The notes beneath the pieces were generated by a model that saw only the letters and a program-made list of their open reading frames with translations, searched no databases and was not told the DNA's origin. Below, piece by piece: positions 178-56,103 of a stretch of 64,000 nucleotides of DNA. Each line of letters opens with the position of its first letter. The first letter of the stretch is position 1. The position numbers and the translations under genes were made by a program. Source of the DNA: an uncultured Bacteriovoracaceae bacterium (GTDB taxonomy: Bacteria > Bdellovibrionota > UBA2428); NCBI GenBank assembly GCA_964477895.1, contig CAYZFQ010000001.1:343750-407749 (forward strand), given 5' to 3'.

Positions 178-420
178 ATGGCGAGGAAGAAGGTTTCCAC
201 CACGGTATACCTCACCGAAGAACAAGTGGTGGCCCTCAAAGAACTACACAATCGAACCCGCGTACCCATCGCAGAATATATTCGCTTGGGCATTGATTTG
301 ATTTTGGATCGTTATGCCGAGAATTTGCCGGGGCAGGTTTCTTTGTTTGATGGAGTGGCTAAGGATCAGCTGGGGTATCGCAAGAAGGCGCCTGGGGATG
401 AGGGACCTGATTTGGTGTGA
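178..420 (+). CDS. ribbon-helix-helix (CopG/ParG/Arc-like) DNA-binding protein, 80 aa
   Basis: The N-terminus TTVYLTEEQVVALKELHNRTRVPIAEYIRLGIDLIL fits a beta-strand plus two helices as in RHH repressors/antitoxins. No SD; ATG sits directly after TATACATAT (possibly leaderless). No partner toxin gene on the same strand. Confidence 0.4.
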   Translation: MARKKVSTTVYLTEEQVVALKELHNRTRVPIAEYIRLGIDLILDRYAENLPGQVSLFDGVAKDQLGYRKKAPGDEGPDLV

Positions 421-483
421 GGGTCCTCACGAACGAGGCGAAGCTTTCTATGCTTCTTTTGTTACGGGGTTATCCGTCCAGAT

Positions 484-624
484 TTAAGACCGGTTCTTGC
501 GTGAACTCCGTCGTCTTTTCCATGACTTATAAATACGGCTCAACTTCTCGATCAATGTGACGATAAGAACCATGCAGTACAGCATGGCTCCAACAAGACG
601 CAGGATATTGTTAGTATCTTGCAT
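484..624 (-). CDS. small membrane peptide A, 46 aa (MQDTNNILRLVGAMLYCMVLIVTLIEKLSRIYKSWKRRRSSRKNRS); type-I-toxin-like or small regulatory membrane peptide
   Basis: ATG at 624 is preceded by a perfect SD AAGGAGG with a 5-nt spacer. A hydrophobic helix is followed by a polybasic tail. Paralog of the 905..1024 peptide, with the same N-terminus and identical SD/spacer geometry. Confidence 0.45.
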   Translation of the reverse strand: MQDTNNILRLVGAMLYCMVLIVTLIEKLSRIYKSWKRRRSSRKNRS

Positions 625-833
625 AGTGGCCTCCTTTTGAGAGGACCATCCTTGGGCCGACCTCGTTCCGTGAGGACTAGGTTGGCCCAAGCAATTTTAG
701 TGCCTAGATTATTCTGCGCAGAGTTCGAAACATAATTAGGATTGGTGTTGAGGCGCGTTTGAGTCGTATTGATTAATAGAACCTCAGCACTTTGGAATAT
801 TATCAGCGTAAAAAACTTGGCATGAATAATGTA

Positions 834-872
834 GGGTCCGACCTCAACCCTCAACGGATTGAGGTCGGACCC
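834..872. repeat. perfect palindrome/hairpin: 14-bp stem GGGTCCGACCTCAA / TTGAGGTCGGACCC with 11-nt loop; contains tandem CCTCAAC heptads
   Basis: Read directly from the sequence. It lies about 30 nt upstream of the SD of peptide B. The 5' arm (GACCTC) could alternatively pair with the SD region (GGAGGTCC). The motif recurs at 13514..13542. Confidence 0.7.
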
Positions 873-904
873 ACGGATGGACAATCCTAAAGAAGGAGGT
901 CCAT

Positions 905-1024
905 ATGCAAGATACTAACACTATCCTGCAACTGATCCGAGAGCTAGTGAACATACTGGTTCTCCTATCGGCACTTGCCGATAGAGTCTTGAGCCGAAAA
1001 AAGAAGAAAAGGAAGAAATCTTAA
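905..1024 (+). CDS. small membrane peptide B, 39 aa (MQDTNTILQLIRELVNILVLLSALADRVLSRKKKKRKKS)
   Basis: Below the 60-aa ORF-track cutoff. Found by hand: AAGGAGG-tccat-ATG at 893-907. Hydrophobic core plus KKKKRKK tail. Paralog of peptide A, divergently oriented. Confidence 0.45.
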   Translation: MQDTNTILQLIRELVNILVLLSALADRVLSRKKKKRKKS

Positions 1025-1183
1025 ACAGACCTCAAGGATGAGCCTTTCTAGTGGAAAAACTTAACTTTTAACAAATGACGCAGGAATAGCGTCGCCCAAT
1101 CCGTTGGGGGCCTTTGATGGGCCATGGCCTTCTGTGCTGAAAATCCTAGATTTAAATCTCAGATTCTATGGACAAAGCTAGGT

Positions 1184-1528
1184 TCAAGTCATCCACTGAT
1201 GCGCGGAGAATTTCACAATGACGAAGATGTATACGATCCAAATTATCCAGGAAATGAAAAGGTATCGTCCAATGGCAACCAAATGCTGAACAGAGGAAAG
1301 CCTATGGCTCCTAGGCAGATAAAAGAAAACGGCCAGTGAAAGCACCAAATATGCCAATAAATTTAGCCCCGAAGCTAAAGAAAGAAGAACGGTTGAAAGG
1401 GCTAACAAGAAAATTTCAAGATAAAGCCTTCGGGGGGAGCGCCGTTTTACAAGAAAAAATAGAATCAAAGCCGCGAAGCCAAGTAGGCCCGGCAACAACA
1501 GAGTTGGATTCTTGTTTAGAAGCTCCAC
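1184..1528 (-). CDS. possible small integral membrane protein (114 aa, GTG start), uncertain
   Basis: Hydrophobic multi-TM-like ORF in an AT-rich (about 40% GC) stretch. No SD. Overlapping plus-strand ORFs at 1124..1339 and 1336..1569 are alternatives, so the coding strand is unresolved. Confidence 0.2.
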   Translation of the reverse strand: MELLNKNPTLLLPGLLGFAALILFFLVKRRSPRRLYLEIFLLALSTVLLSLASGLNLLAYLVLSLAVFFYLPRSHRLSSVQHLVAIGRYLFISWIIWIVYIFVIVKFSAHQWMT

Positions 1529-1676
1529 TATTTTATTGTATCCGGTTTTTTGGAAAATTTAATTTATAAATATCCAACGACTAAAACGCTCAACTTGCAT
1601 CGATAGCTCCGAGATTTTCCGAACATGCCAATTCACTTCCTTTTTTAACAACCCTAGCCTCCAAATCCCCCCCCCC

Positions 1677-1686
1677 ACGTCCCCTC
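1677..1686. repeat. homopolymeric C10 tract in a C-rich leader about 50 nt upstream of lepA
   Basis: Counted directly: positions 1677-1686 are all C, followed by CACGTCCCCTCCCCACCACC. Confidence 0.9.
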
Positions 1687-1734
1687 CCCACCACCTTCGA
1701 CGCCATCCCCGATCTCGTGTAAGAAAAGCTCTCC

Positions 1735-3591
1735 ATGCCAAGCACACCCGTAAACCGTATCCGCAATTTCTCGATCATCGCTCACATTGACCATGGCAAA
1801 TCTACTCTGGCCGACCGACTTATTGAATTCTGCGGGGGCCTCACCAAACGCGAAATGCAGTCCCAAGTCTTGGATTCCTTAGAGATCGAGCGCGAGCGTG
1901 GCATCACTATCAAGGCCCAAACGGTGCGCCTTAAGTACAAGGCCAAAGACGGCATCGAGTATATTTTAAACCTTATCGATACCCCCGGGCATGTGGACTT
2001 CACCTACGAGGTTTCGCGCTCACTTGCCGCCTGTGAAGGTGCCGTGCTGGTGGTGGACGCTTCTCAAGGCGTTGAGGCCCAAACTCTAGCTAACGTGTAC
2101 ATGGCCTTGGATGCCAATCTTTCCATCGTGCCTGTGATCAACAAAATCGACTTACCTTCAGCCGATATCGAGGCGGCTCGGGCGCAAATTGAAGATGTGA
2201 TTGGTATCGATGCTAGTGAGGCCATTCCTTGCTCGGCTAAAGAGGGAATCGGCATCCAGGAAATTTTAGAAGATATCGTTCGTAAGGTTCCCCCGCCTAA
2301 AGAAATTCTCAATGAGCCTCTGCGCGCACTCGTGATGGACAGCTGGTACGACAACTACCAAGGTGTTGTTTTGCTCGTGCGCATTATGGGAGGGATTCTA
2401 CGCAAGGGCGAACGCGTTCAGCTTATGTATATGAATGCGCAGATTCCCGACGATGAAACAAAAAAACAATATCTCGTCACTCGAGTGGGTTACTTCACTC
2501 CCAAGGCTACCGACATAGAAGAAGCCGGCCCGGGCGAGGTGGTCTTTGTGGTTTCGGGAATTAAGTCGGTGCGTGAAACCCGCATTGGTGACACCCTCAC
2601 TCATTGGCATCAGCAAAGTTCCGATAAAACTTTTGAAGTGGCCAAAGAGCCCCTGCCTGGATTTAAAGAAGTGAGATCAGTCGTTTTTTCAGGAGTCTTT
2701 CCCACGGATTCTAAAGATTTTGAAAACCTCAAAGAAGCTTTGGAGAAGTTGGTTCTCAATGACTCGGCCCTCACTTTTGAGCCCGAGTCCTCGGCGGCCC
2801 TAGGATTTGGCTTTCGCTGTGGTTACCTAGGACTTTTGCATATGGAAATAGTACAGGAGCGCCTCGAGCGAGAGTATGGCTTGGCGCTGATCTCCACCGC
2901 CCCTAGTGTGAAATATAAAATTCGTAAAACCAATGGCGAAGAGATTGAGATCGAAAATCCTTCTAAGATGCCAGCGCCTACTCTGATTGAAAAAATCGAA
3001 GAGCCTATGATTATGGGCACAATCCATACTCCCGCGGAATATGTGGGTGCGGTAATTACTCTCTGTGAAAAGCGTCGAGGAATCCAAGAGCGCATCGACT
3101 ATATTACTTCTGATCGCTGCGCCGTGATTTACCGTATGCCCTTGGGCGAAATGGTATTTGATTTTTATGATCGTTTGAAATCTCTCACCAAAGGTTATGC
3201 AAGTTTTGAGTACGAACTCGCCAGTATGCAGGAAAGCGACCTGGTGAAGCTTGATATTATGATCAACGGCGAGAATGTAGACGCTCTTTCGCTGATAGTG
3301 CACCGGTCGAAATCCTACGAACGGGGTCGCGATCTCACCGCCAAAATGAAGGAAGTCATTCCTCGGCAGCAATTTGAAATAGCCATTCAGGCCGCTGTGG
3401 GTGCCAAGATCATTGCCCGGGAAAGTTTGGGCGCTTTGCGTAAGAACGTCTTGGCCAAGTGCTATGGGGGCGATATCTCGCGCAAGCGAAAGCTCTTAGA
3501 AAAGCAAAAAGAGGGGAAGAAGCGCATGAAGAACATTGGCGTGGTGGAAGTTCCTCAGGAAGCTTTTCTTGCCGTCCTTAAAGTAGAGTGA
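1735..3591 (+). CDS. lepA: elongation factor 4 (LepA), 618 aa
   Basis: N-terminal G-domain [24 protein letters not shown] and NKIDL motifs. Length and C-terminal LepA domain are typical. Confidence 0.95.
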
Positions 3592-3607
3592 TACGGTCCC
3601 ATTTTTA

Positions 3608-4504
3608 GTGAAAGCCATCCGACATTTGATTTCGATCTCGGATCTCAGCGATGAGCAAATCCAGGGCCTTGTATTTCAAAGTCTCCACAATCCCCCTCAC
3701 GCCCAGGCCCTCGACCCTCTGAAAAAGGCCGTTGGTCTTATTTTTTTAGAACCCTCTACTCGCACTCGAGTTAGCTTTGAACGAGCCGGTCAGAACAATG
3801 GCCACCATACGATCTTGATGGATTCTAAGGGTACTTCCGTTGAGAAGGGCGAAAGCTTGGCCGACACACTTCGTACCGTTGCGGCCTACGGGGTAGGGAT
3901 ATTTGTAATACGCACTCCTTTTACTGGTTCGTTGAATTCCCTTACCCACCTTGGCCTCGGCCCTGTGCTTAATGCCGGAGATGGAGTGGGTGAACATCCT
4001 ACCCAAGCTCTTCTAGACTTGGTGACGCTTGTTAAGACCTTTGGGGGCGGTAAATTGGAAAAAGTGAAGGGTCTACGCCTAGGCATCATGGGGGACCTCA
4101 AGCGGTCTCGAGTGGCTCGATCTTGGTCGCTTCTGGGACCCCGCGTTGGGATCGAGCTTTCTTTTGTAAGTCCTAACGACTGGAAGCCTACGGACTGGAC
4201 TCAGAAATATGAGTGGAGTGCCGATAAACGGGAGCTCCAGTCGGTGGATGTGGTCATGGCCCTACGCGTGCAAAAAGAGCGCATGGTAACACTCGATCCT
4301 GAGGAGTCGAAAAAGTTTGCATTGGACTTTCAAATTCACTCCGCCGACCTTAAAGAGAAGCAACGACTTATGCATCCCGGTCCGGTCAACTGGGGAGTGG
4401 AAATTCATGAAGATTGGATTTCCGATCCTCGGTCCTTAATTGGCGAACAGTTGCGAAGCGGGATGCTATTGCGATCAACTCTTTTAGAGAATTTAGATGT
4501 ATAA
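3608..4504 (+). CDS. pyrB: aspartate carbamoyltransferase catalytic subunit, 298 aa
   Basis: STRTR carbamoyl-phosphate binding motif and HPTQ motif. Typical ATCase length. Overlaps carA start by 8 nt. Confidence 0.9.
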   Translation: MKAIRHLISISDLSDEQIQGLVFQSLHNPPHAQALDPLKKAVGLIFLEPSTRTRVSFERAGQNNGHHTILMDSKGTSVEKGESLADTLRTVAAYGVGIFVIRTPFTGSLNSLTHLGLGPVLNAGDGVGEHPTQALLDLVTLVKTFGGGKLEKVKGLRLGIMGDLKRSRVARSWSLLGPRVGIELSFVSPNDWKPTDWTQKYEWSADKRELQSVDVVMALRVQKERMVTLDPEESKKFALDFQIHSADLKEKQRLMHPGPVNWGVEIHEDWISDPRSLIGEQLRSGMLLRSTLLENLDV

Positions 4505-5690
4505 AAAAACGGACTTTTCCAAAGCCTCTCAACTCGTTGCTCATGACGTAACATTTTATTTAGAAAAAGGCGCTTGTTTTGAGGGACGGGCCTACGGCGA
4601 TTTTTCTCAGCCTCGATCCGGAGAATTTGTTTTTTGTACGGCGATGAGTGGAATTGAAGAGTCTCTCACCGATCCTAGCTTTGCTCGGCAAATTTTGGTG
4701 AGCACGGTGGCCCATGTGGGCAATACTGGGTACACCGCTGAAGACGCTGAGAGCGAAAAAATTTGGGCAGAGGGGCTCATTTGCCGGCGTGTGGAAAGCC
4801 AACCTTCCAATTGGCGCGCCAAAAGTTCTATCCCAGAGTGGATGGTGGCCGAAGGACGCTTTGTAGTAGAGGGGGTCGATACACGGGCGCTGACCACGAT
4901 TTTACGTGAAGAAGGTAGTCAGCGCGGTGTGGTTTTTTTGCGCGGAAAGATGACGGCAGCCGAGGCTCTCGATTTCATAAAAAATAAGGTGCCCGAGATG
5001 AAGGGCCAAGATCTCACCGGGCTTGTGACTTGTGCGCATGAGTATTCTTTTGATGAGAGTAAGAATCCCTATGGTTACTGGCCCATGCTGGCCGAACTTC
5101 CAAAAAAACAGGTCGAAAAACGCGGGCGTATTGCGGTGTGGGATTTTGGAGTGAAGCGCAACACCTTGCGGATTCTCAATTCCCTGGGAGCTCCCGTTCA
5201 AGTCATGCCCGCCACGGCTAAAGCCGAAGAACTTCTGGCGGCAGCTGAAAGTGGAATTTTTCTCAGCAATGGACCCGGAGACCCTGCAGCCGCGACTCAC
5301 ATCATCCAAGAACTCAAAAAGGTGATTGGCAAAAAGCCTCTATTTGCCATCTGCCTGGGCCATCAGCTGGTGGCTCATGCTGTGGGTGCTAAAACTTTTA
5401 AAATGAAATTTGGCCATCGTGGAATTCACCATCCCGTGGTGCAGAAAGACTCCAGTGGGCGTAGTCTGCGAACTTGGATCACGAGTCAAAATCACGGCTT
5501 TGCCGTCGACCGAGAATCTCTTCCCGTCTCGGTGCATGTGTCCTTTGAGCATGGCGACGATGAAACTGTTGAGGGTTTGAGTTTGCCGAACTTGCGCGCT
5601 GAAACCGTGCAATTTCATCCGGAGGCTGGACCCGGACCTACCGACTCTTGTGTTCTTATTCGGGATTTTGTGTTGGAGGGAATGAAATGA
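4497..5690 (+). CDS. carA: carbamoyl-phosphate synthase small (glutamine amidotransferase) subunit
   Basis: Class-I GATase catalytic Cys motif AICLGHQL and the N-terminal CPSase small-chain domain. Exact start is uncertain (ATG 4497 overlaps the pyrB stop). Confidence 0.88.
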   Translation: MYKKTDFSKASQLVAHDVTFYLEKGACFEGRAYGDFSQPRSGEFVFCTAMSGIEESLTDPSFARQILVSTVAHVGNTGYTAEDAESEKIWAEGLICRRVESQPSNWRAKSSIPEWMVAEGRFVVEGVDTRALTTILREEGSQRGVVFLRGKMTAAEALDFIKNKVPEMKGQDLTGLVTCAHEYSFDESKNPYGYWPMLAELPKKQVEKRGRIAVWDFGVKRNTLRILNSLGAPVQVMPATAKAEELLAAAESGIFLSNGPGDPAAATHIIQELKKVIGKKPLFAICLGHQLVAHAVGAKTFKMKFGHRGIHHPVVQKDSSGRSLRTWITSQNHGFAVDRESLPVSVHVSFEHGDDETVEGLSLPNLRAETVQFHPEAGPGPTDSCVLIRDFVLEGMK

Positions 5691-6328
5691 TTCAGTTGCG
5701 GGGCTATCTCGACCGGGTGCTCGAAGCCTATTCTAAGGGCGCTTATTACGAAGAAGTAAAATTCGCCAAAGAAGAGTTTTTTGAGAGGGCTGGACGTGTG
5801 GCCGAGGGCTCGGAAGTTTTCGAGACTCAAATGCGTGCTTTCTTGGACTGGTATATTTTTGATCGTCCTTTGAAAATTCACGACGTTGCGCCAGTGAAAA
5901 TGTTTGTGCTGGAGCATGTCGATACTTTAACCGAAGAAGATCAGCAGATTTATATTGCTCTGGCCAAATCAGTACATTCTCTTTTTGAGCTTACCAAAGT
6001 GAAGGGGTCCGACATTTACATCAAAGATCTCTTTGATGGAGTCAAATATGTGGTGCGAGAGTCTGAGGTTAACACTGGCTTCAGCAAAAAAGATCTTTTC
6101 GAAGCCCGACTTATTGAAATTGGCGACCGGCTTTATTTTGGAAACTCTTTTATTTTTCATCCCGGCGAAACCCGACCCTTCGTGTTGAAGCAAGTCAAAT
6201 CCACGCGTTATCTGGAGAGCAAGGAAAAGCTTAAGCTTTTGCATAAGCTGGCTAGTATGAAACTTAAAACCGACCAGTATTCACACATTGATGTGAAGCA
6301 TATCTATACGGAGAAACCGCTTTTTTAA
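5687..6328 (+). CDS. conserved hypothetical protein (213 aa) embedded between carA and carB
   Basis: ATG at 5687 overlaps the carA TGA (ATGA). Its TAA overlaps the carB ATG (TAATG), so it is translationally coupled on both sides. No recognisable domain. Confidence 0.6.
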
Positions 6329-9300
6329 TGGGAACCGTAGAGCTGAAAACCATTAAGAATGTTTTGATTCTGGGTTCGGGCCCCATCACTATTGGGCAGG
6401 CCTGTGAGTTTGATTACTCTGGCACTCAGGCCTGCAAAGCTCTCAAGGAAGAGGGTTTGCGGGTAGTACTTCTCAATTCCAATCCGGCCACCATTATGAC
6501 CGATCCGAATGTTGCGGATCGCACTTATATTGAACCGCTGGATCCCATGACCGTGATCGAGATCATTCGTAAGGAAGCTATTGACGCTATTTTGCCTACG
6601 ATGGGTGGGCAAACGGGTTTGAATTTAATTCTGGCTCTTTCAAAGATCCCTCGAGCCTTGGAGTCGGTCAGAATTTTAGGCGCCAACCTGAAAGCCATTC
6701 ACTTAGCCGAAGATCGCAGGGCCTTTAGGGAAGTGGTGACAGCTCTGGGAATGGACACTCCTAAGTCGGCCGTCATTCGTACTATTGAAGAATGCCAAGA
6801 ATTCGCCAAAGACACGGGGTTTCCCTTTATCCTGCGACCTAGCTTTACCTTGGGTGGCACCGGCCAAAGTTTTGTTTTTTCCAGCAGCGAGTTAATTGAG
6901 AAAACTCGCACGGCTCTTATGGAGTCTCCTATTGGGGAGGCCCTAGTGGAAGAAAGTGTTTTGGGTTGGAAAGAATACGAACTCGAAGTGATGCGCGATC
7001 GCCAAGACAACGCCATCATTGTTTGTTCGATTGAAAATTTAGATCCGATGGGTATTCACACGGGTGATTCCATTACGGTGGCTCCCGCTCAAACTCTTAC
7101 AGATCGTGAATACCAATCAATGCGCACGGATTCTTTGCGTCTGATTCGACGCGTGGGAGTGGAGACCGGCGGATGTAACGTCCAGTTTGCGGTTGATCCC
7201 AAAACGGGTCGACGCATTGTCATTGAAATGAATCCACGAGTCTCGAGGTCTTCAGCCCTCGCATCAAAAGCCACGGGTTTTCCTATCGCCTACGTCGCCA
7301 CTAAACTGGCTCTGGGATATACGCTGCCAGAAATTCAAAACACAATTACGAATACTACCAAAGCTTGCTTTGAACCTCCCATCGACTATGTGGCGCTAAA
7401 GATCCCGCGCTTTCACTTTGAAAAGTTTCCGGGAGCGAAAGACGAACTTCTCCCTCAGATGCAAAGTGTGGGAGAGGTTTTGGCTTTTGGGGGAAGCTTT
7501 GGTGAAGCTTTTCACAAGGCTCTAAATAGTTTGGAAAGAAAGTGGCCGATCTTTGATCCTGTGGACTCCAAGAATCCTGTAGAAGCATGGGAGCAAGAGG
7601 CGGATGCACTCTTAGTGAAATCTCACTCACGTCGAGGTTTCGCGATTTGGGATGCCTTGGCCTGCGGATTTGAGCCTGATCTTCTCGCTAAGATCATGTG
7701 CTTTGATCCTTGGTTCACTCGGGAGTTGCGCCGCTACCAAAAAATGACGGGCTTAGGTCCTCGCGCCACAAATTTCCCAAAGAGTCCGGTGCGTTTTGAA
7801 ATGATCGATACCTGTTCGGCTGAAACACGCGCTCAAACTCCCTTTTATTATTCCACGCGCGAGCCCTTGGGTCGCCCGGCAGACTTTATGGAAAAGTATG
7901 GAGCTTCTATTCTGAGCCCTGACTTTGAGAAAAAGCGCGGCCGGGTAGTCATTTTAGGCTCAGGGCCCAACCGCATCGGCCAGGGTGTAGAGTTTGATTA
8001 CTGCTGTGTTCATGCTTCTCTCGCTTTGCAACGAATGGGTTTTGAAACCATCATGGTAAATTGCAATCCTGAAACGGTAAGCACCGACCCGACGACCTCT
8101 ACTCGCCTTTATCTTGAGCCTTTGGCGGATGATTCTGTAAAAGCGGTGCTGGAAAAAGAATTAGATCCCTGTGTGAAGGCCGGCAAAGAAGCCTATGTGC
8201 TGGTGCAAACGGGGGGACAAACCCCACTTAAGCTTGCCGCGAATATCGAAGCTTGGGGATATAAAATTTTAGGAACAAGCAAGGCGGCGATAGATTTGTG
8301 CGAAGATCGCTCACTCTTTGCCAAGCTTTTGACCGAGCTAGATGTGGCTTATCCAGACTTTGCCGAAACCTCTACCTTTGATGAAAGTCTCACAGCTGCA
8401 CGTCGATTGGGTTATCCCATCCTCGTGCGCCCCTCTTATGTGCTGGGTGGGCGCGGCATGAAGATTTGTGGTTCCGATAAAGACTTGGCCAATGCCTTCA
8501 CCGAAGCCAAAGAAGTAAGTGAAGAGTATCCGCTCTACCTAGATAAGTTTTTAGTCAGTGCCATTGAGTTTGATGTAGATGGAATTTGTGATGGCACGAA
8601 TGCCTGGGTGGCGGGCATTATGGAACACGTCGAAGAAGCGGGCATTCATAGTGGTGATTCTTCGTGTGTCATTCCACCTTTTCGAGCCACTCCAGCTACG
8701 GTTCAAGAGATGGGCAAACTTGCGATTCGCATAGCCTTGGCTTCTAAGGCCAAAGGTTTGTTTAATATCCAAATGGCTGTAGTGAATGAGCGCATTTATG
8801 TTTTGGAAGCCAATCCCCGGGCTTCGCGTACGGTGCCCTTTTTAGCCAAAGCTACGGGATATCCCATCATTGAATGGGGTTTGCGCGCCGCTTTGGGTGA
8901 GCCGCTAAAAGACTATTTAAAATTAGCGCCCCGCTCGGAAGAATATCTTTTGCCCAGTGGGGGCTATGCCGTGAAGAGTCCGGTCTTTCCTTTTTCTAAA
9001 TTTAAAAATGTCGATCCGGTCTTGGGACCCGAAATGCGCTCCACTGGGGAAGTCATGGGAATGGATGCCTCTCCCGGAGCTGCTTTTGCCAAGGCTTTTA
9101 TGGCTGCTGGGGTAAGTTTGCCTACCAGTGGTGCGATTTTATTTAGTGTGAACGACACGGAGAAAAATCGTGCCCTCCAAACAGCGCGCAATCTGCAGCT
9201 GATGGGCTTTAAAATCATAGGCACTCCGGGGACGGCTAAGTTTTTCAGTCGTGCTGGGGTGAAGACGGAATCCATTGCTAAGATTGGCCAGGCACCTTTA

Positions 9301-9543
9301 GGTGAAGATTTGCTAGCCCTCCTTAAAGACTCCCATGTACAACTTGTAGTGAACACGACCGGCACTTTAGATTCTTACCGGGACGGACTTACTATCCGCC
9401 AGGCGGCCCTGCGCTACCGGGTCCCCTTACTTTCTACACTCTCAGCGGCGGAAATGGCCGCAATGGCCATTCAGACACTAACTCAAAGTGGGGTACGTAC
9501 TGTTTGCCTGCAGGATTTTACGCTTGGATCGTATACGACCTAG
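6328..9543 (+). CDS. carB: carbamoyl-phosphate synthase large subunit, 1071 aa
   Basis: Two ATP-grasp halves, oligomerisation domain and C-terminal MGS-like domain. Typical length. Confidence 0.95.
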
Positions 9544-9681
9544 AAAAGGCGTCAGTGAACTTTTTTCAGACGTCACCCACCTTAGATAATGTCTTCCGCG
9601 TCCGAGGAAACGATTGACCTTGCCCCGTATCAAGGCGCCGTTTGACGACAGCGGCGCTATCTGGCACTTTTACACCTCGAA

Positions 9682-10155
9682 ATGTCTGACAAGCTCCCCC
9701 TTACCGTTGAAGGTAAATTAGCTTTAGAAGAGGAATTAAAACGCCTCAAGCATGTCGATCGCCCTGCGGTGATTGAGCAAATTGCTATTGCTCGGGCACA
9801 TGGTGATCTGTCAGAAAATGCGGAATATTCCGCCGCCCGTGAAAAGCAAAGTTTTATTGAAGGTCGTATCTTAGATATCGGCGATAAATTAGCGCGTGCC
9901 GAAGTCATCGACGTGAGAAATATCCAGTCTGATAAAATCGTCTTTGGTGCTCACGTGGTAGCCCAAGATCCCGATGGCAAAGAAATTTCCGTGCAAATTG
10001 TGGGCGAGCCCGAAGCTGACTTAGCTCGCGGCAAGCTTTCCGTTTCAGCACCCCTGGCCCGCGCTTTGTTAGGCAAAGTTGAAGGTGACGAAGCCATTGT
10101 TAAAAGTCCTAAAGGCGACATCGCCTACGACATTATCAAAGTCGAATACAAATAG
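9682..10155 (+). CDS. greA: transcription elongation factor GreA, 157 aa
   Basis: N-terminal coiled-coil (LTVEGKLALEEELKRLK...) plus C-terminal FKBP-like domain. Typical length. Confidence 0.9.
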   Translation: MSDKLPLTVEGKLALEEELKRLKHVDRPAVIEQIAIARAHGDLSENAEYSAAREKQSFIEGRILDIGDKLARAEVIDVRNIQSDKIVFGAHVVAQDPDGKEISVQIVGEPEADLARGKLSVSAPLARALLGKVEGDEAIVKSPKGDIAYDIIKVEYK

Positions 10156-10165
10156 GATTTTACTC

Positions 10166-12349
10166 ATGCAAGCGGGGACAAGCCCTTCTGTGCGTCCCTG
10201 GGATCTCAAAGTTCAGTTTTTAAAGGGAGTCGGCGATAAAATCGCCAAGCTCTTTGCCCATGGTGATATCTACACTCTCTGGGATCTCTTTCTCTTTCTC
10301 CCCCGCACCTACGAAGACCGGAGACACTTCTCTAACTTTGACGAGATCGAGCAGGCTTCTCTCACGCAGTCGATGGTGATCGGCCGGGGTTGGATCGATC
10401 GCTACAATCATCGACCCGTAGGAGGGGGGCGAAAACGCGTTCTGGAAGCCGTGCTGCGCATGGAGAAGAACAATGCCCTCTCGCCTTATATTAATTTCAC
10501 TTGGTTCAACGACTTTGGCGGCTCGCTGATGAATCGCTTTCCTGCCGGGTCGGAGGTGATTTTTCGGGGCAAGGTCCAGGGCTTTCGTGGAGCTCTACAG
10601 ATTGTGCATCCTGATTTACTGGATGCGAACACCGTGTTGCCCGAATGGGAATTCGGCGCCTATGTGCCCGTCTACCGAGAAATCGGTGGACTTTCGACCA
10701 AGGTCATTCGCAAGATGATTTTCTACGCCTTTGGGCGCAAAGAATTTTTAGCCATTCCAGAGCTTCTTCCGCGCTCACTTCTCGATCGTTACAGTCTCCC
10801 CACTTTTCGGGAGAGCTTAAAAGAGATCCACTTTCCCAAGAAATGGGAACCTTCGGGGGCAGATCTGCGGGCGGATGGAATTTATTTTCGAAGAATTGTA
10901 TTTGAAGAACTTTTTATGATGGCCCTGGCTTTGCATTTGCGAAAAGCCCAGTGGCGAGCGGAAAGTGCCCGCGAAGTGGATCGCATTCCAGAGATAAAAT
11001 ACTCTGAGGCAAAACTTAGCCAGGAAATAAAGAAACTTCCCTATACTCTTACGGGCGATCAGCAAAAATCCTTGAATGATATTCTTCAGGATTTGTCACT
11101 AAGCAAAGATCGATCGCCCATGCATCGTTTGGTCCAAGGAGATGTGGGTAGTGGCAAAACCATAGTTGCCTTTTTATCAGCCCTAGCTGCTATGGATGCA
11201 GGATTTCAGGTGGCCTATATGGCGCCCACTGAAATTTTAGCTGACCAGCACTACCAAAATTTCTCAAAATTTTTCCCCGAGCACTCCCACCTGGCTTACC
11301 TGCTTAAGGGTGCTCTCACTCTAAAAAATAAAAAAGAAGTCAGGGCTAAGGTTGAAAGTGGCGAAGCAAGATTTGTGATCGGAACCCAGGCTCTGCTTAC
11401 CGAAGACACACTTTTTGAGAAACTTGGGCTTATCATCGTAGACGAACAACATCGCTTCGGTGTGGAGCAGCGCCTGGGCCTGAAGAGACAGAGCGCAAAG
11501 CTTTGGCCTCATTTACTTGTGATGACCGCCACTCCTATTCCGCGTTCGCTAGCGCTCAGTCTCTATGGCGACCTCAGTATGAGTGTAATTCGTGAGAAGC
11601 CTCCGGGGCGAACGCCTATTCGTACCCACATTGTAAAGCAGCGGGCTTATGCGGCTCTTAAAGAAAGGCTTCAGAAATTTTTAGATGAGGGTCGGCAGAT
11701 TTATATTGTCTACCCTCTGGTGGAAGAGTCTGAGGAGCTGGATCTTAAAGATGTGCAGAATGCTTTTAAAGAGTGGTCTCAGACTTTTGGCGAAAACCAA
11801 GTTGGGCTTTTGCACGGACGACTTAAGTCCAAAGATAAAGAGCAAGTCATGCGGGATTTCAAAGACGGCAAGATCAAAGTCTTGGTCTCCACCACGGTTA
11901 TCGAAGTCGGCGTGGACGTTCCTCAAGCCAGTGTGATTGTGATATTCCATGCCGAGCGCTTTGGCTTAGCCCAACTTCACCAGCTGCGCGGTCGGGTGGG
12001 GCGAGGTGCTACCCAAAGCTATTGTGTTTTAGTGGGGCCCGACAACCCGGGCCTACTCGTGGATGAGCGATTGAAGATTTTAGAACAAAGCGAAGACGGC
12101 TTTCTTGTGGCCGAAAAAGATTTGGAGATTCGCGGACCCGGTGAATTTTTAGGCCGCAAGCAAAGTGGTTTGCCCGGATTTCGGGTGGCTCATATTTTAC
12201 GGGATGTGGAGTTGCTCGAGGTCGCGCGCGAGGAGGCTCGGAAGATTTTGGAGGATGATCCTACGCTTAGGAAGGCGGAGAATCAGGCGCTGCGCGAAGG
12301 CTTGGTTTATTGGTGGAAGGGTCGCTTGGAGCTTACGCAGAGTGGGTGA
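10166..12349 (+). CDS. recG: ATP-dependent DNA helicase RecG, about 727 aa
   Basis: Helicase motifs GDVGSGKT, DEQHRFGV and QLRGRVGRG plus a wedge domain. Start chosen at ATG 10166 just after the greA stop; the track ORF begins earlier at 10079, inside greA. Confidence 0.9.
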   Translation: MQAGTSPSVRPWDLKVQFLKGVGDKIAKLFAHGDIYTLWDLFLFLPRTYEDRRHFSNFDEIEQASLTQSMVIGRGWIDRYNHRPVGGGRKRVLEAVLRMEKNNALSPYINFTWFNDFGGSLMNRFPAGSEVIFRGKVQGFRGALQIVHPDLLDANTVLPEWEFGAYVPVYREIGGLSTKVIRKMIFYAFGRKEFLAIPELLPRSLLDRYSLPTFRESLKEIHFPKKWEPSGADLRADGIYFRRIVFEELFMMALALHLRKAQWRAESAREVDRIPEIKYSEAKLSQEIKKLPYTLTGDQQKSLNDILQDLSLSKDRSPMHRLVQGDVGSGKTIVAFLSALAAMDAGFQVAYMAPTEILADQHYQNFSKFFPEHSHLAYLLKGALTLKNKKEVRAKVESGEARFVIGTQALLTEDTLFEKLGLIIVDEQHRFGVEQRLGLKRQSAKLWPHLLVMTATPIPRSLALSLYGDLSMSVIREKPPGRTPIRTHIVKQRAYAALKERLQKFLDEGRQIYIVYPLVEESEELDLKDVQNAFKEWSQTFGENQVGLLHGRLKSKDKEQVMRDFKDGKIKVLVSTTVIEVGVDVPQASVIVIFHAERFGLAQLHQLRGRVGRGATQSYCVLVGPDNPGLLVDERLKILEQSEDGFLVAEKDLEIRGPGEFLGRKQSGLPGFRVAHILRDVELLEVAREEARKILEDDPTLRKAENQALREGLVYWWKGRLELTQSG

Positions 12350-12539
12350 GGGGGCTAGTGAGGTTTTTGGGTGGGGTTTGCGCTGTTAAGGTATTATCTG
12401 TCAGATTTATAGTGCGGCAGTTGGGGTGAAATCTAGGGGGAAACAATCAAGAGGCCCATGCATTTCGCAACAATAGTCGATCGGTAGGCTTTAGTTTAAA
12501 ATCATGGGTTGAAATTTTACTTTAAGTCTTCATCATTCT

Positions 12540-13343
12540 TTAGTGCTTCTTCAACGGACTTGACGCCTGATCGCGGGGGTCCTGAGGTATTTTGATAGTT
12601 ATTATCGCGACTGGAACGAATTCGGAAACACTCTTAAGACTGCCTTCTTCTTCATAGGTGACTTTAGTGTCTCCGTATGAAAAATATGGGACCTCTATGC
12701 CATTCACTGGAATTTTCCCTTGTATTGGAGCAATAATTCTCATCTTTGGATCGCTGGGATCTCGGAGAACTATATTTTTTCCATCATATGACTCTATGAT
12801 TTGAGCATGACTGAATGCGACTTCCTTTGACGAGGGTTTCAAAAAAGCGGTTATTAAAAGCTTTAATTCATTAGGACCTGGTTTTAATCGATTCGCGTCA
12901 AATTTACTTATGGGTATTAACGAAGGGGAAACCGGGCCGACTTCTATTCCCATTTGCACTCCCTCGACATCAAATTTAAGGGGTGAAATTTTCTTCTGCA
13001 GTTCTTTAAGTGCGTTAACCACCTCAAGTGGGGTCATACCCCCATTAGGTTTAACTGCATCCTTAACAAAAACCTCTAATAATCGCTGAGGATTTTCAAT
13101 AGGATCCTGACCGGAAGCTGCCGCGGCTCCTTGAAGGACATTCACGATACAAGTTGCGCCACATAGACCGCGCCTGCCGATAATGGAGGTCTGGTTGACC
13201 AAAAGATTTTTCGATGCAAGATCTTCCCACGAAAACGGATGTAGGAGTTTCGCGGCCGAAGGTTCTTCTAAATCAGCTGTACCATGATCGGCCGCAAATA
13301 TCGCCCAGCTCAAAAACATAACCCAACAGCAAAAACGATTCAT
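12540..13343 (-). CDS. secreted protein with peptidase-C39-like (papain-fold) domain, 267 aa
   Basis: Signal peptide. A Gln lies 13 residues before CGATCIVNVLQ, and HAQIIESYDGKNIVLRDP follows later, matching the C39/C39_2 Q...CG...H..DP catalytic pattern. Confidence 0.4.
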   Translation of the reverse strand: MNRFCCWVMFLSWAIFAADHGTADLEEPSAAKLLHPFSWEDLASKNLLVNQTSIIGRRGLCGATCIVNVLQGAAAASGQDPIENPQRLLEVFVKDAVKPNGGMTPLEVVNALKELQKKISPLKFDVEGVQMGIEVGPVSPSLIPISKFDANRLKPGPNELKLLITAFLKPSSKEVAFSHAQIIESYDGKNIVLRDPSDPKMRIIAPIQGKIPVNGIEVPYFSYGDTKVTYEEEGSLKSVSEFVPVAIITIKIPQDPRDQASSPLKKH

Positions 13344-13513
13344 TTTTAAAATTTTAACATATTGAGCACCTGCGTTTCAGAATTTAAGTACCCCTGGATT
13401 TTCGGTCATACGCCGTCAAAAATCCATCTGCCTTATTGACCAATGATTTCCTAAGTAATCTTGCATCAATAACCGCGAAATTTTCCGCCCAACAACCTGG
13501 CACGAAAAATCTA

Positions 13514-13542
13514 AGGTCCAACCTCAACCCTCAACGGATTGA
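13514..13542. repeat. second copy of 29-nt motif GGTCC(G/A)ACCTCAACCCTCAACGGATTGA (28/29 identical to 835..863)
   Basis: Direct comparison of the two loci. This copy lacks the 3' stem arm and sits in the divergent intergenic region between 12540..13343(-) and 13615..14667(+). Confidence 0.7.
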
Positions 13543-13556
13543 AAGCAAAACGCCGG

Positions 13557-13567
13557 CCCCCCCCCCC
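13557..13567. repeat. homopolymeric C11 tract, 15 nt downstream of the motif and 48 nt upstream of gene 13615
   Basis: Counted directly (gg-CCCCCCCCCCC-tcactcc). Confidence 0.9.
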
Positions 13568-13614: not shown

Positions 13615-14667
13615 GTGATTCTAAGCAAATGCCGAGCCAAGCTCCTTATATCGCTGATATTTTTTTCAGGCGCTGCGCAGGCTAAATTAGATTTTGCTAC
13701 AGCAACTGAAATACTCCGGACTTCCAGAAGTCATAGCAGTCAGGTAATAGCAGCGGCCATTTCCGAGCTTTTTTCCTATCAAAGAATTGAAGGACAAAGG
13801 CGGCAAGTTTTCGAAAGTCTGCCTTTGGCCGACAAAACTCTTTTTTTAAAACAAATCTCGAAACTCAGTCCAGCGGAAGCTTTTTCCTACTTAGAGTTTG
13901 CACCAACTTATATAGGACTCGCGAGTGCCCAGGTCAGCTCTGATTTGGAGATGAAGGCCTACGTTGAGGTCTACCTCGAAGTGCTTTCCCAATTTCAAGG
14001 ACGAGGAGTTAATTATCTCTGGGGGATCGTATCGACTCTTCCGCACTCTCCTTTTAGTCCGCAAGCGATCTCCCAAAAGGATGCTGCCATCGCTGAAATA
14101 TATTCTCGGCTGAGTCTGCTTGAGCATGATGAGAGCTTTTTGAACGTTGAAATTAATCAGGTTCAAAGCAGCTATAAGGTGACTGATATTCAGCCTCTGG
14201 AACTTCTCGAGACCCAGATGAGGGAAGGGGCTGCTCCCTTAGCTTTTTCTGCATGGAATCGCCTAGCCTTTGGCCTTACTAACCACCGAGGTCCACGTGC
14301 CCAGGCCCTGCGTCAAGACATCTTAGATCGCGCGTCTCCCGACATGGCCATCGCCGTGCTGACCGGTCTTCTTCGAGGCCATAACGACGCCGATACCTTC
14401 TATATTTTGCTCCGGGCCCTAGGTGAAAACTTTCGACCGGACTCCCTTGCTATTCGGCAAGCGGCTTTAAGGGGCCTTCTACACTTCGAGGGGCCTGGCG
14501 TTGAATTTCTACTGGGGCGCGTGCTCTCGTCCACCTATGCCAAACAGGGCTTTGAGAAAGACCTCATTAAGCACCTTCGCACGCATAAGCTCGGTCGCCT
14601 TCTGTCGTGCCCGGGCGCCTTCCCCAATTCGGCATTGCCTGCCACTCCCGAATCCTCTAAAAGGTAA
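13615..14667 (+). CDS. hypothetical secreted protein, 350 aa
   Basis: N-terminal signal peptide (LLISLIFFSGAAQA). No recognised domain. Confidence 0.55.
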   Translation: MILSKCRAKLLISLIFFSGAAQAKLDFATATEILRTSRSHSSQVIAAAISELFSYQRIEGQRRQVFESLPLADKTLFLKQISKLSPAEAFSYLEFAPTYIGLASAQVSSDLEMKAYVEVYLEVLSQFQGRGVNYLWGIVSTLPHSPFSPQAISQKDAAIAEIYSRLSLLEHDESFLNVEINQVQSSYKVTDIQPLELLETQMREGAAPLAFSAWNRLAFGLTNHRGPRAQALRQDILDRASPDMAIAVLTGLLRGHNDADTFYILLRALGENFRPDSLAIRQAALRGLLHFEGPGVEFLLGRVLSSTYAKQGFEKDLIKHLRTHKLGRLLSCPGAFPNSALPATPESSKR

Positions 14668-14669
14668 GC

Positions 14670-14867
14670 ATGATTAGCTTTGGTCACCTTATTATTCTTC
14701 TCGTGATCCTCCTTCTCTTTTTTGGCCCCACACGCATTGAAGGCGTGGGTTCGGCTTTGGGCCGTGCTGTACGCGGCTTTAAAAAGGGATTGGATGGGTC
14801 GGAAGATGAAGTGGCCAAAGCCAAAGACGTTACGCCGCCCAATGAGAAGAGCAGCACTCCGGCTTAA
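14670..14867 (+). CDS. tatA: twin-arginine translocase subunit TatA/E, 65 aa
   Basis: MISFGHLIILLVILLLFFGPTRIEGVGSALGRAVRGFKKG matches the TatA TM helix, hinge FG(P) and amphipathic helix. No tatB/tatC adjacent. Confidence 0.85.
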   Translation: MISFGHLIILLVILLLFFGPTRIEGVGSALGRAVRGFKKGLDGSEDEVAKAKDVTPPNEKSSTPA

Positions 14868-21862: not shown

Positions 21863-22477
21863 CTAGGAAAAGCCCAGCGAAATAAGATTTTGTTCCGCCC
21901 GAAGCTGTGCAATTTTTTGCAGCATCTCGTGCGCACTCAAGCGGTCAATTCCCAATAAATCCAAACGATTTTTCATTACGTAATTTTTTATCCCGACATA
22001 GTCCTTCCCCCACTCTACAATGCGAGTAAAGGGCCGGGCCTGCCAAAAATGTTTAAGTGAAGAAGCTTTTCTCCAGGCTCTACCTTTCTGAGCATCAAGA
22101 ATAGTGCGGGCCAAAATCCCGCTAAGAGCGCGGATAAATCTGCGATAAGCGTAAATAGACTTGGGCTGAATCACAAGATGGACATGGTCGTGAGCCACTG
22201 CGATATCTCGAAGTTGCACTAGGGTTTTATTTCCCACATCCCTAGTGATTTTCTCAATCTGACTCGCCATTAAGATAAGACTCGTGACACCTCCGACGTT
22301 GGAGGTGGAAAGCTTCATCCACGCCGATTTCATCACCAAATGCATAGGCCGCTTCACGGCAATAGGACGAGCGGTGCGGGGATTGCCTTTGGCTTTCCCC
22401 GCACCTCCAAAAGCCTGCGACTTTTTCCAATCAAATCCGGGGAGAGGTATTTGAACGGATCGAGCTGCGAACTTCAT
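21863..22477 (-). CDS. IS200/IS605-family HUH tyrosine transposase-like protein (REP-associated tyrosine transposase, RAYT-like), 204 aa
   Basis: HuH motif HDHVHLVIQP, then WQARPFTRIVEW, then the catalytic-Tyr region KNYVMKN, in the order expected for a Y1 transposase. No IS ends or subterminal hairpins flank it. Confidence 0.55.
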   Translation of the reverse strand: MKFAARSVQIPLPGFDWKKSQAFGGAGKAKGNPRTARPIAVKRPMHLVMKSAWMKLSTSNVGGVTSLILMASQIEKITRDVGNKTLVQLRDIAVAHDHVHLVIQPKSIYAYRRFIRALSGILARTILDAQKGRAWRKASSLKHFWQARPFTRIVEWGKDYVGIKNYVMKNRLDLLGIDRLSAHEMLQKIAQLRAEQNLISLGFS

Positions 22478-22720
22478 AAGGACTTTCTACTCCAATATTT
22501 TACCAATGTAAATGACATCGCTGAAAATAGTTTGACGGCTGTTTTTTACTCCGTATTTTGTATGGTCTAAAAATGGAATTTTGTTCGGCGCTAACCCATC
22601 TTGGTTTTTTTTCTGATTGGGGGGTCTTCACTTTGATGTTGTTGAGGCACTTGCGCGGTTCCCCCGATCCTCTGCAGGGTGGGTGACGTGTGCAAAAAGT
22701 TCTCTGACGCCTTCTAAAAC

Positions 22721-22909: not shown

Positions 22910-23737
22910 TTACAAGAGCTTCAGAGCAAGTCCAGTGCTTTGGTTCGCTTGAGCCAAAGTTGCTACACCGGCGTTCTGAAGAATTGAAGTCTTGGCAAGC
23001 TCGGCCGACTCTACAGCCAAGTCAGCGTCCTTGATTCGGCTGTTCGCTGCCGACAAGTTCTCACGGTAAACTTCGATGTTGTTAATTGTAGAGCTCATTC
23101 GGCTTTGAACCGCACCGAAGTTAGAGCGCATTCCGGCTACCTTTGCGATGGCTTCTTCAACGCTATCCAAAGTGTCGCGAGCCGAAGACTTGGAATCTAC
23201 AGATATGCCCGATACCCCAAGTGACGACACTGTAGCGTTAGCTTTGCTGGCGTCGTAAGTGATGCGGTTATTTTCGCTACCACGAATACCTACTTGGAAG
23301 TCGAGTTCGCTAGCGCTTCCGTCCAGCAATTTGGTTCCGGAATATTCGGTAGTTTGGGCGATCCGTTCCATTTCTTGTTTGAGTTGTTGCACTTCGATGT
23401 TTACGAAGCCACGTTCTTTTTCGCCGATAGTATCGGAAGCGGCTTGAGTGGCCAATTCACGAAGTCGAACCAAGATGTTCGAAGTTTCGCTCAGTCCACC
23501 TTCTGCCACTTGCACGAAAGAAATACCGTCTTGGGCGTTACGTTGTGCTTGGCCGAAGGCTCTGATCGATCCGCGCATTTGTTCGGAGATCGCGAGGCCG
23601 GCCACGTCGTCCATCGACTTGTTGATGCGATAGCCAGAAGACAGACGCTCCATGGCTTTCTCTAATCCTGAACCGTTTTGGCGCAGGTTGCGTTGCGCGT
23701 TCACGCTCGCAATGTTTGTTTGAATTCTCAGACCCAT
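22910..23737 (-). CDS. fliC: flagellin, 275 aa
   Basis: Conserved flagellin N-terminus MGLRIQTNIASVNAQRNL and C-terminus LQNAGVATLAQANQSTGLALKLL. Confidence 0.9.
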   Translation of the reverse strand: MGLRIQTNIASVNAQRNLRQNGSGLEKAMERLSSGYRINKSMDDVAGLAISEQMRGSIRAFGQAQRNAQDGISFVQVAEGGLSETSNILVRLRELATQAASDTIGEKERGFVNIEVQQLKQEMERIAQTTEYSGTKLLDGSASELDFQVGIRGSENNRITYDASKANATVSSLGVSGISVDSKSSARDTLDSVEEAIAKVAGMRSNFGAVQSRMSSTINNIEVYRENLSAANSRIKDADLAVESAELAKTSILQNAGVATLAQANQSTGLALKLL

Positions 23738-23846
23738 AAAAAACCCTCCCTAAAACTCTGGGCACCATGCTCAGAGTTGTTTTCGATTGGGATGCTGGGT
23801 TGAGGCTTTGGGCCTCTAACGCATCGCATCAAAAACTGATATACCG

Positions 23847-23873
23847 GGATCGGCAGAGGGCGAAAAATCTTTA
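23847..23873 (-). promoter_or_regulatory. sigma-28 (FliA)-type promoter for flagellin gene 1
   Basis: Minus strand reads TAAAGATT-N11-GCCGATCC against consensus TAAAGTTT-N11-GCCGATAA. Located about 110 nt upstream of ATG 23737. Confidence 0.55.
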
Positions 23874-23945
23874 ATGCATTGCGTTGTGAATGGGCGGGGG
23901 GTTGGTGCGAAGTGCTGTGAGTTCAGCAACTTAAAGAATTATATA

Positions 23946-24013
23946 AAGTTTGTGTAAAAAAAAGACCCACCCCCAGGAACCCCTTTAAAGGGGTTCCCGA
24001 GGGTGGGTCTTTT
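23946..24013. terminator. bidirectional rho-independent terminator (long GC hairpin flanked by A-run and T-run) downstream of flagellin gene 2
   Basis: AAAAAAAA-GACCCACCCCCAGGAACCCC-tttaaa-GGGGTTCCCGAGGGTGGGTC-TTTT. A second small hairpin GTCCGCC-aga-GGCGGAC lies at 24033..24053. Confidence 0.6.
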
Positions 24014-24059
24014 AGATCTGATTAGAAAATTGAGTCCGCCAGAGGCGGACCCATCACAA

Positions 24060-24893: not shown

Positions 24894-25238
24894 TTTTAGT
24901 CTCCTGTATAAAGGTTCATAATTTTCCTTCCGTGTATAATTTCCAGGTGGAGCGTCCTGCCGGGACATCTCGCTTCATCCGAACCTGGGCTGCCATCAGT
25001 GGCATGTGGTTAAAGGTCAAAAAAAATTTTTAGGTCTATGACCGCCGCAAATGAATACTTCACTCGCAGAGTCCATCCTTAGCCCGAACAAAATGTTCTC
25101 AGTCTTCCGAACCCCCTTTCTCTCTGACCCGTAACCGCGTGCACCTTTAGGCTGTGAGCCTCGAGGAGCGTTTAGCGCCACGGAATCTTCAAGCTGAACC
25201 GAGAAAGTTTTTTGACGACTTTTCTCGATACATAGTGT

Positions 25239-43473: not shown

Positions 43474-43553
43474 TACAGAGGGCCCATGAAAAACTATTGA
43501 CGCCTTACCGGATGAGAAACCGGGTTAGACTATTAAAAAGTTCAGGAGGGATT

Positions 43554-55987: not shown

Positions 55988-56103
55988 ATGCCCTTATCGA
56001 CATCTTTTTAAAAAAGATTAGTCGGAGATTTGGCGCATACTTTATTCAAGAGGGGGGGGCTGCTTATTGCGGATTTCGCTAAGTGGTTCTAGTCTTAGGA
56101 GAT

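Follow-up and report, generated by a model that had tools for sequence, protein, structure and literature searches.

The stretch of DNA analysed here (the window) comprises 64,000 nt from an uncultured Bacteriovoracaceae bacterium (GenBank assembly GCA_964477895.1, contig CAYZFQ010000001.1, positions 343,750 to 407,749). It is chromosomal, carrying lepA, pyrB, carAB, recG, lptC/A, two flagellin genes, the dcw cluster, a Tad pilus locus and the gene of an RHS protein. The LepA proteins nearest to that of the window bear the name Bdellovibrionales, which places the organism in this order. Our subject is an intergenic motif, the 28-mer GGTCCRACCTCAACCCTCAACGGATTGA, which is found exactly in two places, both on the plus strand: 835-862 (copy A) and 13515-13542 (copy B). 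In 100 dinucleotide-preserving shuffles the repeat of this 28-mer was matched zero times. Each copy lies between divergently transcribed genes, as a first reading of the sequence (the original prediction) had reported: copy A is flanked by open reading frame (ORF) C on the minus strand and ORF A on the plus strand, and copy B by the ORFs 12540-13343 (minus) and 13615-14667 (plus). We surmise, with a probability of about 0.6, that the motif is the promoter-proximal segment (approximately -9 to +19) of a gene module of about 300 nt which encodes a protein of 39-46 amino acids.

The motif is part of a longer repeat. Copies A and B share 52 nt at 87% identity (811-862 and 13491-13542), which extends the motif 24 nt upstream; the twenty-ninth base included in the original prediction differs between them (G834 in copy A, A13514 in copy B). 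A third, diverged copy (copy C) is located on the minus strand at 705-651, with a hairpin and a paralogous small ORF of its own. All five matches to GGNCCRACCT in the window are inside copies A, B and C. Copy A is embedded in a perfect palindrome and copy B has no 3′ arm, both as had been claimed; the motif itself covers the 5′ arm and the loop of the copy A hairpin (stem-loop 1) plus 4 nt of the 3′ arm. Profile searches of the window and of 162 kb from related loci revealed no fourth copy of motif or module, and the exact 21-mer has no match in genome and metagenome collections. Degenerate promoter-plus-arm patterns gave 6 genome, 12 metagenome and 0 viral matches; these 18 come from unrelated taxa, are about as numerous as estimated from the information content of the patterns, and in no case continue into CGGA or a hairpin arm. 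Rfam (at gathering thresholds) and tRNA scans of the window were negative, and a permissive Rfam scan of 400-1200 returned spurious miRNA-type matches only.

Four full modules were compared, A and C from the window and two from metagenomes (L031 and L032), with copy B as a fifth copy of the promoter. Modules C, L031 and L032 align over approximately 300 nt, starting at the GG of a -24-like element and ending about 65 nt past the stop codon; upstream of the GG their sequences are unrelated. Between modules A and C the alignment runs from the promoter-like element to codon 8 and resumes in the 3′ untranslated region (3′UTR), of which some 65-85 nt are conserved. The suggestion that the motif might be the conserved end of a small repeat element came close: it is the 5′ end of a repeated gene module of about 300 nt, which is inserted with respect to related genomes. 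The features of the modules and their surroundings are collected in Table 1.

Table 1. Coordinates of the module copies and associated features in the 64-kb window
Feature	Position	Strand	Remarks
Module A, complete: promoter-like element, three leader hairpins, 39-amino-acid ORF, 3′UTR	816-1115	+	nhmmer four-module profile, E = 1.9e-74
Module A, -24/-12-type element	818-832	+	TGGCAT-N5-ATGT; spacing to hairpin identical in all five copies
Module A, stem-loop 1	834-872	+	Arms 834-847 / 859-872 (14 nt each), loop 848-858 (11 nt)
Module A, 5′ element	848-865	+	CCCUCAACGGAUUGAGGU; complementary to 3′UTR end 1094-1110
Module A, stem-loop 2	877-904	+	Predicted to sequester Shine-Dalgarno AAGGAGG (893-899)
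ORF A, 39 amino acids	905-1024	+	MQDTNTILQL...SRKKKKRKKS; stem-loop 3 (906-930) over start codon
Module A, 3′ element	1094-1110	+	GCCCAATCCGTTGGGGG; complementary to 848-865; weak reverse profile match
Module C, complete	418-707	-	Head-to-head with module A; profile E = 2.6e-91
Module C, -24/-12-type element	705-691	-	AGGCAC-N5-TTGC
Module C, stem-loop 1	690-652	-	Followed by Shine-Dalgarno hairpin
Module C ORF, 46 amino acids	624-484	-	
Module C, 3′UTR terminal element	438-422	-	Complementary to stem-loop 1 loop
Insertion, lineage-specific, 1.28 kb, between RHH gene and lepA	421-1698		Four relatives and local alignment
Relic of RHH 3′ end (1699-1722) and RHH-lepA spacer, duplicated by insertion	1699-1734	+	26/32 columns (31 window bases) match L024 5964-5995
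Copy B, 5′ fragment of A-type module	13496-13542	+	Profile positions 2-46 only, E = 0.0028
Copy B, -24/-12-type element	13498-13512	+	TGGCAC-N5-ATCT
Copy B, equivalent of 5′ arm	13514-13527	+	
Copy B, loop	13528-13538	+	
Copy B, TTGA	13539-13542	+	
C11 tract	13557-13567	+	Between copy B and GTG start (13615) of orphan gene

The products of ORFs A and C are 47% identical, and each ORF is preceded by a strong Shine-Dalgarno sequence. Neither protein has a match in Pfam or NCBIfam, nor did a word-based homology search with the two return one; a full HMMER scan of 1.84 billion representative proteins yielded four relatives, for two of which (L031 and L032) the module DNA was retrieved. The six aligned sequences have in common the pattern QD..IL.L....V....L...LSR..K..KR, from which we conclude that the small ORFs represent a real, though rare, protein family. 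Its members possess a conserved hydrophobic core (IVLIV.LI) and a tail rich in K and R; a role as membrane toxins is uncertain.

Three hairpins are kept in the leaders of all four full modules in spite of sequence change. The 81 nt at 830-910, which include stem-loops 1 and 2, fold at -44.7 kcal/mol (z = -7.6), and stem-loop 1 is also formed when the complete leader of module A (834-934) is folded. Stem-loop 2 pairs the Shine-Dalgarno sequence with an upstream CCUCU-like tract, and stem-loop 3 (UGCA-GAUA ... UAUC-UGCA) covers the AUG. Compensatory double changes which preserve the pair are found at four base pairs across the four modules. Codons 1-3 and 7-8 are invariant, synonymous sites included, for which stem-loop 3 offers an explanation; the codons in its loop and the rest of the ORF vary. 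Stem-loop 1 does not qualify as an intrinsic terminator: the sense strand has no U tract after it, the U-rich run of the antisense strand begins 3-6 nt past the stem, and a terminator scan called neither.

The conserved 3′UTR ends in about 17 nt that are complementary to stem-loop 1, namely to its loop and inner stem. In module A this joins CCCUCAACGGAUUG to CAAUCCGUUGGGG, and in module C AGUCCUCAC-GGAACGAGG to CCUCGUUCGUGAGGAC. RNAs were folded from the start predicted for a sigma-54-type promoter (12 nt past the -12 element, i.e., approximately 844 in module A) to the end of the conserved block, and in the global minimum-free-energy fold of all four modules 17 pairs link the first 30 nt with the last 35 nt, with the Shine-Dalgarno and AUG hairpins intact inside the closed structure. 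The identities of the pairs vary between modules with pairing retained, such that the A type and the C type differ on both strands of the helix. The helix starts 1-4 nt past the predicted start and leaves out the outer 5′ arm of stem-loop 1; its 3′ end is the end of the conserved block. Among 1000 shuffles the duplex energy of module C and that of L031 were reached by none. Small hairpins of 5 bp are found in the 3′UTRs at 1077-1093 in module A, directly before the 3′ element, and at 440-456 in module C, with the U tract on the strand opposite to the ORF. These would stop transcription entering the module from downstream, for instance from the RHH gene.

The promoter is possibly of the sigma-54 type, a prediction from the sequence to which we give even odds. 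The defining features of sigma-54 promoters are a GG (-25/-24) and a GC (-13/-12) with 10 nt between them (PMC2831329). All five copies present an identical layout, consisting of a -24 hexamer with GG, an A-rich spacer of 5 nt, (T)TGC, 2 nt and the arm GGNCCRRCC. The GG is invariant (5/5), and the GG-N10-GC arrangement is kept in the three modules of the C type, C (AGGCAC-N5-TTGC), L031 (AGGCCC-N5-CTGC) and L032 (GGGTCT-N5-TTGC); the TGC of the consensus TGGCAC-N5-TTGC is thus present 10 nt downstream in three of the four full modules. As at sigma-54 promoters, the conserved block begins at -25 and there is no conserved -35 region. Furthermore, the 5′ boundary of the fold-back helix coincides with the predicted sigma-54-type start. 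We found no upstream activator site shared between the A/C spacer and the region upstream of copy B. In four related genomes a protein with a Sigma54_activat match is encoded beside the RHH-lepA locus; it has the AAA+ domain and no DNA-binding domain, and activators of this kind fit the lack of a conserved upstream site. The left-hand neighbour of RHH in the source genome codes for a different protein. A scan for sigma-70 promoters upstream of the hairpins called none; by eye there are only weak -10-like hexamers (AANANT) and no conserved -35, for which reason we do not favour this reading. A weak sigma-70-type start at the hairpin base is nevertheless possible.

The activator genes of the relatives (L024 4644-5564, L027 2618-3550 and L029 1950-2945) specify proteins of 306-331 amino acids composed of AAA+ and lid, lacking both receiver and helix-turn-helix domains, and in all three loci the gene is divergent from the RHH-lepA unit. 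The promoter of the RHH gene was considered as a conserved sigma-54 site and rejected: its GG-GC spacing is 10 nt in the window and in L024, and 9 nt in L027 and L029.

These data suggest the following model. Transcription would start some 12 nt past the -12 element, inside the DNA palindrome, and the RNA would begin with about 18 nt (in module A CCCUCAACGGAUUGAGG) that could pair locally, giving the inner stem of stem-loop 1. Once the 3′UTR has been synthesized, the same nucleotides could switch to the 3′ end as their partner. The mRNA would then be closed as a stable panhandle which is not translated and in which the Shine-Dalgarno sequence and the AUG are buried. Such a switch would follow the logic of the hok-type (tac/fbi) type I toxin mRNAs. 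In hok mRNA the 5′ tac element pairs first just downstream and later with the 3′ fbi element, resulting in a closed, untranslatable full-length mRNA (PMC9841398). By prediction, the module transcripts share this property of hok-like mRNAs, combining Shine-Dalgarno sequestration with 5′-3′ fold-back.

A number of observations weigh against this interpretation. At the promoter, the -12 dinucleotide is GT in copy A and CT in copy B instead of GC; there is neither an rpoN nor an activator gene in the window; and a G+C-rich inverted repeat over -10 to -1 is not a known feature of sigma-54 promoters. Should the sigma-54 start hold, the RNA would lack the outer 10 bp of the conserved palindrome (-10 to -1), and neither their conservation nor one compensatory change among them (T-A to G-C, module A against module C) would be explained. 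The covariation statistics are weak, since only four full modules are at hand. With respect to the 5′-3′ helix, the duplex energies of module A and L032 were reached by 38 and 42 of the 1000 shuffles, which is modest, and the duplex of module A is not energetically specific for its own 3′UTR. If transcription starts at the hairpin base instead, the local stem-loop 1 beats the 5′-3′ helix in two of the four modules. An inverted copy of the hairpin tip, if that is what the 3′ element represents, would by itself bring part of the complementarity. In several family members the hydrophobic stretch is short or broken by charged residues.

The history of the locus could be traced by comparison with four related genomes (LepA 81-88% identical), in which the gene order is activator, an optional gene, RHH, lepA, pyrB, carA, and where RHH directly abuts lepA. 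In the window these two genes are separated by module C, a spacer of 108 nt, module A, an ORF for a membrane protein of 114 amino acids (1184-1528, minus strand) and a C10 tract (1667-1676), followed by the relic of the RHH 3′ end. The arrangement in the four relatives, taken together with this relic, indicates that the module pair is a lineage-specific insertion. The single module of L032 is located between unrelated genes, with no RHH, activator or other regulator gene within 3 kb, from which it follows that the RHH protein is not a conserved partner of the module.

Two further features of this region were recorded. The 34 nt before the RHH start codon (143-176, TAGGAGCCTACATTGCAACGTGTTACTATACAT) are identical at L024 5711-5744, in a genome with no more than about 78% identity in the RHH coding sequence, and five genomes share the core TGCWACGTGTTAC without change. 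A Shine-Dalgarno sequence is lacking, so that the RHH mRNA may be leaderless, or this stretch may be an autoregulatory operator. In the Logan assembly SRR13208889, from an independent sample, the contigs end at window position 774 and start at 841 (L001, L010), on either side of the promoter-like element of module A, a break which could reflect low coverage or strain variation.

Copy B is probably a relic of an A-type module. It has neither 3′ arm nor small ORF, no other module parts are found nearby or elsewhere in the window, and similarity to copy A ends after TTGA. The alternative, that copy B is a working promoter and 5′ leader captured by the operon downstream, is rather doubtful, though several observations speak for it. 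Copy B keeps exactly the segment from -30 to +19, i.e., the promoter plus the predicted transcribed part up to the inner hairpin; six of its seven differences from copy A fall in the upstream 24 nt, with 27/28 identity counted for the other 28 (hand count, p ~0.03); and it points at a gene 73 nt downstream. Were it co-opted in this way, its RNA might bind in trans to the module A 3′ element: the duplex with the module A 3′UTR is calculated at -23.1 kcal/mol, compared to -25.9 for the 5′ element of A itself. Against the captured promoter stand its CT at -12, with neither G nor C in place; a sigma-70-like TTGACA-N18-TATCAC nearer the gene (read by eye and not listed by the promoter scan); and the absence of a 3′ partner from its own operon, where the search for one gave background-level duplexes only. 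The orphan downstream gene, furthermore, offers no orthologous upstream regions for comparison.

The operon in question (13615-14867) encodes a protein of 350 amino acids with a signal peptide, followed directly by a TatA-family gene of 65 codons. The larger product has no homologue among 5.8 billion proteins. The C11 tract that the original prediction placed 15 nt after copy B is present, at a distance of 14 nt. It is one of three homopolymer tracts (C10 1667-1676, C11 13557-13567 and G8 56052-56059) in this genome of 48% G+C, which are located 24-59 nt upstream of the plus-strand starts of lepA, the orphan 350-amino-acid gene and citrate synthase, respectively; they could be slippage-prone or C-rich leader elements.

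Turning to the nature of the palindrome, we consider it unlikely that the hairpin instead terminates an antisense RNA encoded in cis, which would be a type I antitoxin and run from the first codons of the ORF back over the Shine-Dalgarno sequence, in which case the apparent sigma-54 spacer would be the reverse complement of the U-rich tail of this RNA. The hairpin does fold better on the antisense strand (-48.2 against -44.7 kcal/mol for A, -41 against -35.1 for C), where G.U replaces A.C in A, C and L031, and a U-rich tract lies past it in all copies; in modules A and C an extended -10-like sequence, TGTTAGTAT, can be seen by eye on the antisense strand at codons 3-6. But the tract begins 3-6 nt beyond the stem, at a site where no terminator was called, and L032 displays the opposite asymmetry, with the G.U pair on the sense strand. 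The -10-like sequence is by eye absent from L031 and L032, so that there is no conserved promoter for an antisense RNA, which tells against our preferred interpretation as well. Moreover, a terminator tail leaves the invariant GG and TGC positions unexplained. The antisense RNA would be compatible with the proposed module, since both RNAs could exist.

A DNA operator is improbable. According to this reading the small genes would be repressed by a dimeric regulator, for which the neighbouring RHH protein is one candidate. It would sit across the transcription start on the palindrome (GGNCCRACCT ... AGGTYGGNCC) or on the heptads, and copy B would be a half-site. An operator would account for the outer 10 bp of the 5′ arm, which at -10 to -1 are maybe never transcribed and nevertheless form a conserved inverted repeat in the four modules, and an RHH gene does adjoin the module pair in the window. 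However, the spacing of the arms varies, with loops of 11-15 nt, and the arms differ in a pair-preserving manner (T-A against G-C) rather than as fixed half-sites; variation that preserves base pairs is the behaviour of an RNA helix and not of an operator. The dimeric-protein site which the original prediction saw in the tandem CCTCAAC heptads likewise loses its basis, as the heptads are confined to copies A and B: the heptad pair CCTCAACCCTCAAC has no further occurrence in the window and is missing from copy C, L031 and L032, where the variable positions keep base pairing. Around the L032 module, RHH and other regulator genes are lacking over 3 kb, and relatives carry the RHH gene without the module.

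The link to a RAYT-like transposase, which had been put forward as a speculation, is hardly tenable. It would make the motif a repetitive extragenic palindromic (REP) sequence serving as substrate of the product of 21863-22477, and its copies mobile non-autonomous repeats. In REP sequences a GC-rich palindrome, interrupted by 2-4 bases, comes immediately after a GT(A/G)G head; they flank the RAYT gene, occur in high copy number (more than about 100 per genome), and are mostly free-standing and extragenic (PMC2817692). The motif is indeed a repeated short extragenic palindrome, preceded in copy A by TGTAG; the window does contain an ORF with a Y1_Tnp domain (36 bits); and copy B shows part of the sequence away from a small ORF. 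Yet the head is missing in copy B (TCTAA), copy C (TGCTT), L031 (TGCAA) and L032 (TGCGA), and loops are 11-15 nt instead of 2-4. No GGNCCRACCT match or motif-like inverted repeat flanks the transposase-like ORF, which itself scores below the NCBIfam cut-offs (27 against 80 for RAYT, 34.7 against 55 for IS200) and had no match in a PDB sequence search. Only three copies of the motif are found in the window, both complete ones fused to small ORFs; every full copy is joined to a conserved ORF, leader and 3′UTR, as befits a part of a gene module, and the collections lack the exact 21-mer. Readings as an integron attC site or a dif-like site were rejected for want of fitting core sequences and of an integrase in the vicinity, and so was the idea of a 12.7-kb island with copies A and B as direct repeats at its ends, because the interval carries lepA, pyrB, carAB and recG in the order of the relatives.

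An inverted pair of 36 nt (AAGGCGTCAGTGAACTTTTTTCAGACGTCACCCACC; 9546-9581 and 22678-22713, 92% complementary) was noticed in the same survey, one copy directly after the carB stop codon and the other about 200 nt upstream of the Y1-like ORF. As a REP candidate for that ORF the pair is preferable to the motif, but it has two copies only and no GTAG head. Elsewhere in the window, two tandem flagellin paralogues (22910-24968) share a repeat of 233 nt at 74% identity, and between them is a near-perfect palindrome of 54 nt (23960-24013) which resembles a bidirectional terminator. An RHS-repeat/DUF6531 protein gene (43470-45149) lies directly 3′ of the Tad pilus genes (secretin, TadZ/TadA-like ATPase, TadB/C-like).

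The modules can be set beside the hok/Sok type I toxin mRNAs and the AapA/IsoA system of Helicobacter. Common to them are a very small ORF with hydrophobic core and cationic tail, a leader that buries the Shine-Dalgarno sequence, a 5′ element able to pair just downstream or with the 3′ end (PMC9841398), and a narrow phylogenetic spread with paralogous copies and location in an indel. Unlike those systems, the modules have no sequence or family relation to them (Pfam, NCBIfam and Rfam being negative), their promoter looks like a sigma-54 rather than a sigma-70 type, and the hydrophobic segment is weak in some family members. There is also a resemblance to CsrA/RsmA leaders, limited to sequence: the loop of stem-loop 1 always contains CGGA, there is another GGA past the hairpin (in AAGGAUGG or ACGGAUGG), and the Shine-Dalgarno sequence includes one more. 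No csrA gene is present in the window, and the conservation of the loop is explained without CsrA by its complementarity to the 3′UTR.

Computation thus points to an unannotated gene module for a small protein, with the motif as its regulatory 5′ end and an mRNA predicted to have a hok-like architecture. The family is lineage-restricted, occurring in relatives of predatory bacteria (Bdellovibrionales), and the insertion beside lepA is recent. A more far-reaching proposal, which we regard as a long shot, is that of an undescribed type-I-toxin-like family of Bdellovibrionales that would be sigma-54-dependent and locked by 5′-3′ pairing, in which the region of promoter melting would at the same time be an arm of the palindrome, so that the opening of the promoter and the folding of the leader would be coupled. 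In this scheme copy B would serve either as an exapted promoter or as a trans RNA competing for the 3′ lock of module A. We know of no type-I-toxin-like regulation described in this phylum. If confirmed, the module would extend such regulation to the phylum of the Bdellovibrionales and would provide a compact case of a promoter overlapping a leader hairpin. More generally, short intergenic repeats can be pieces of unannotated small-ORF modules.

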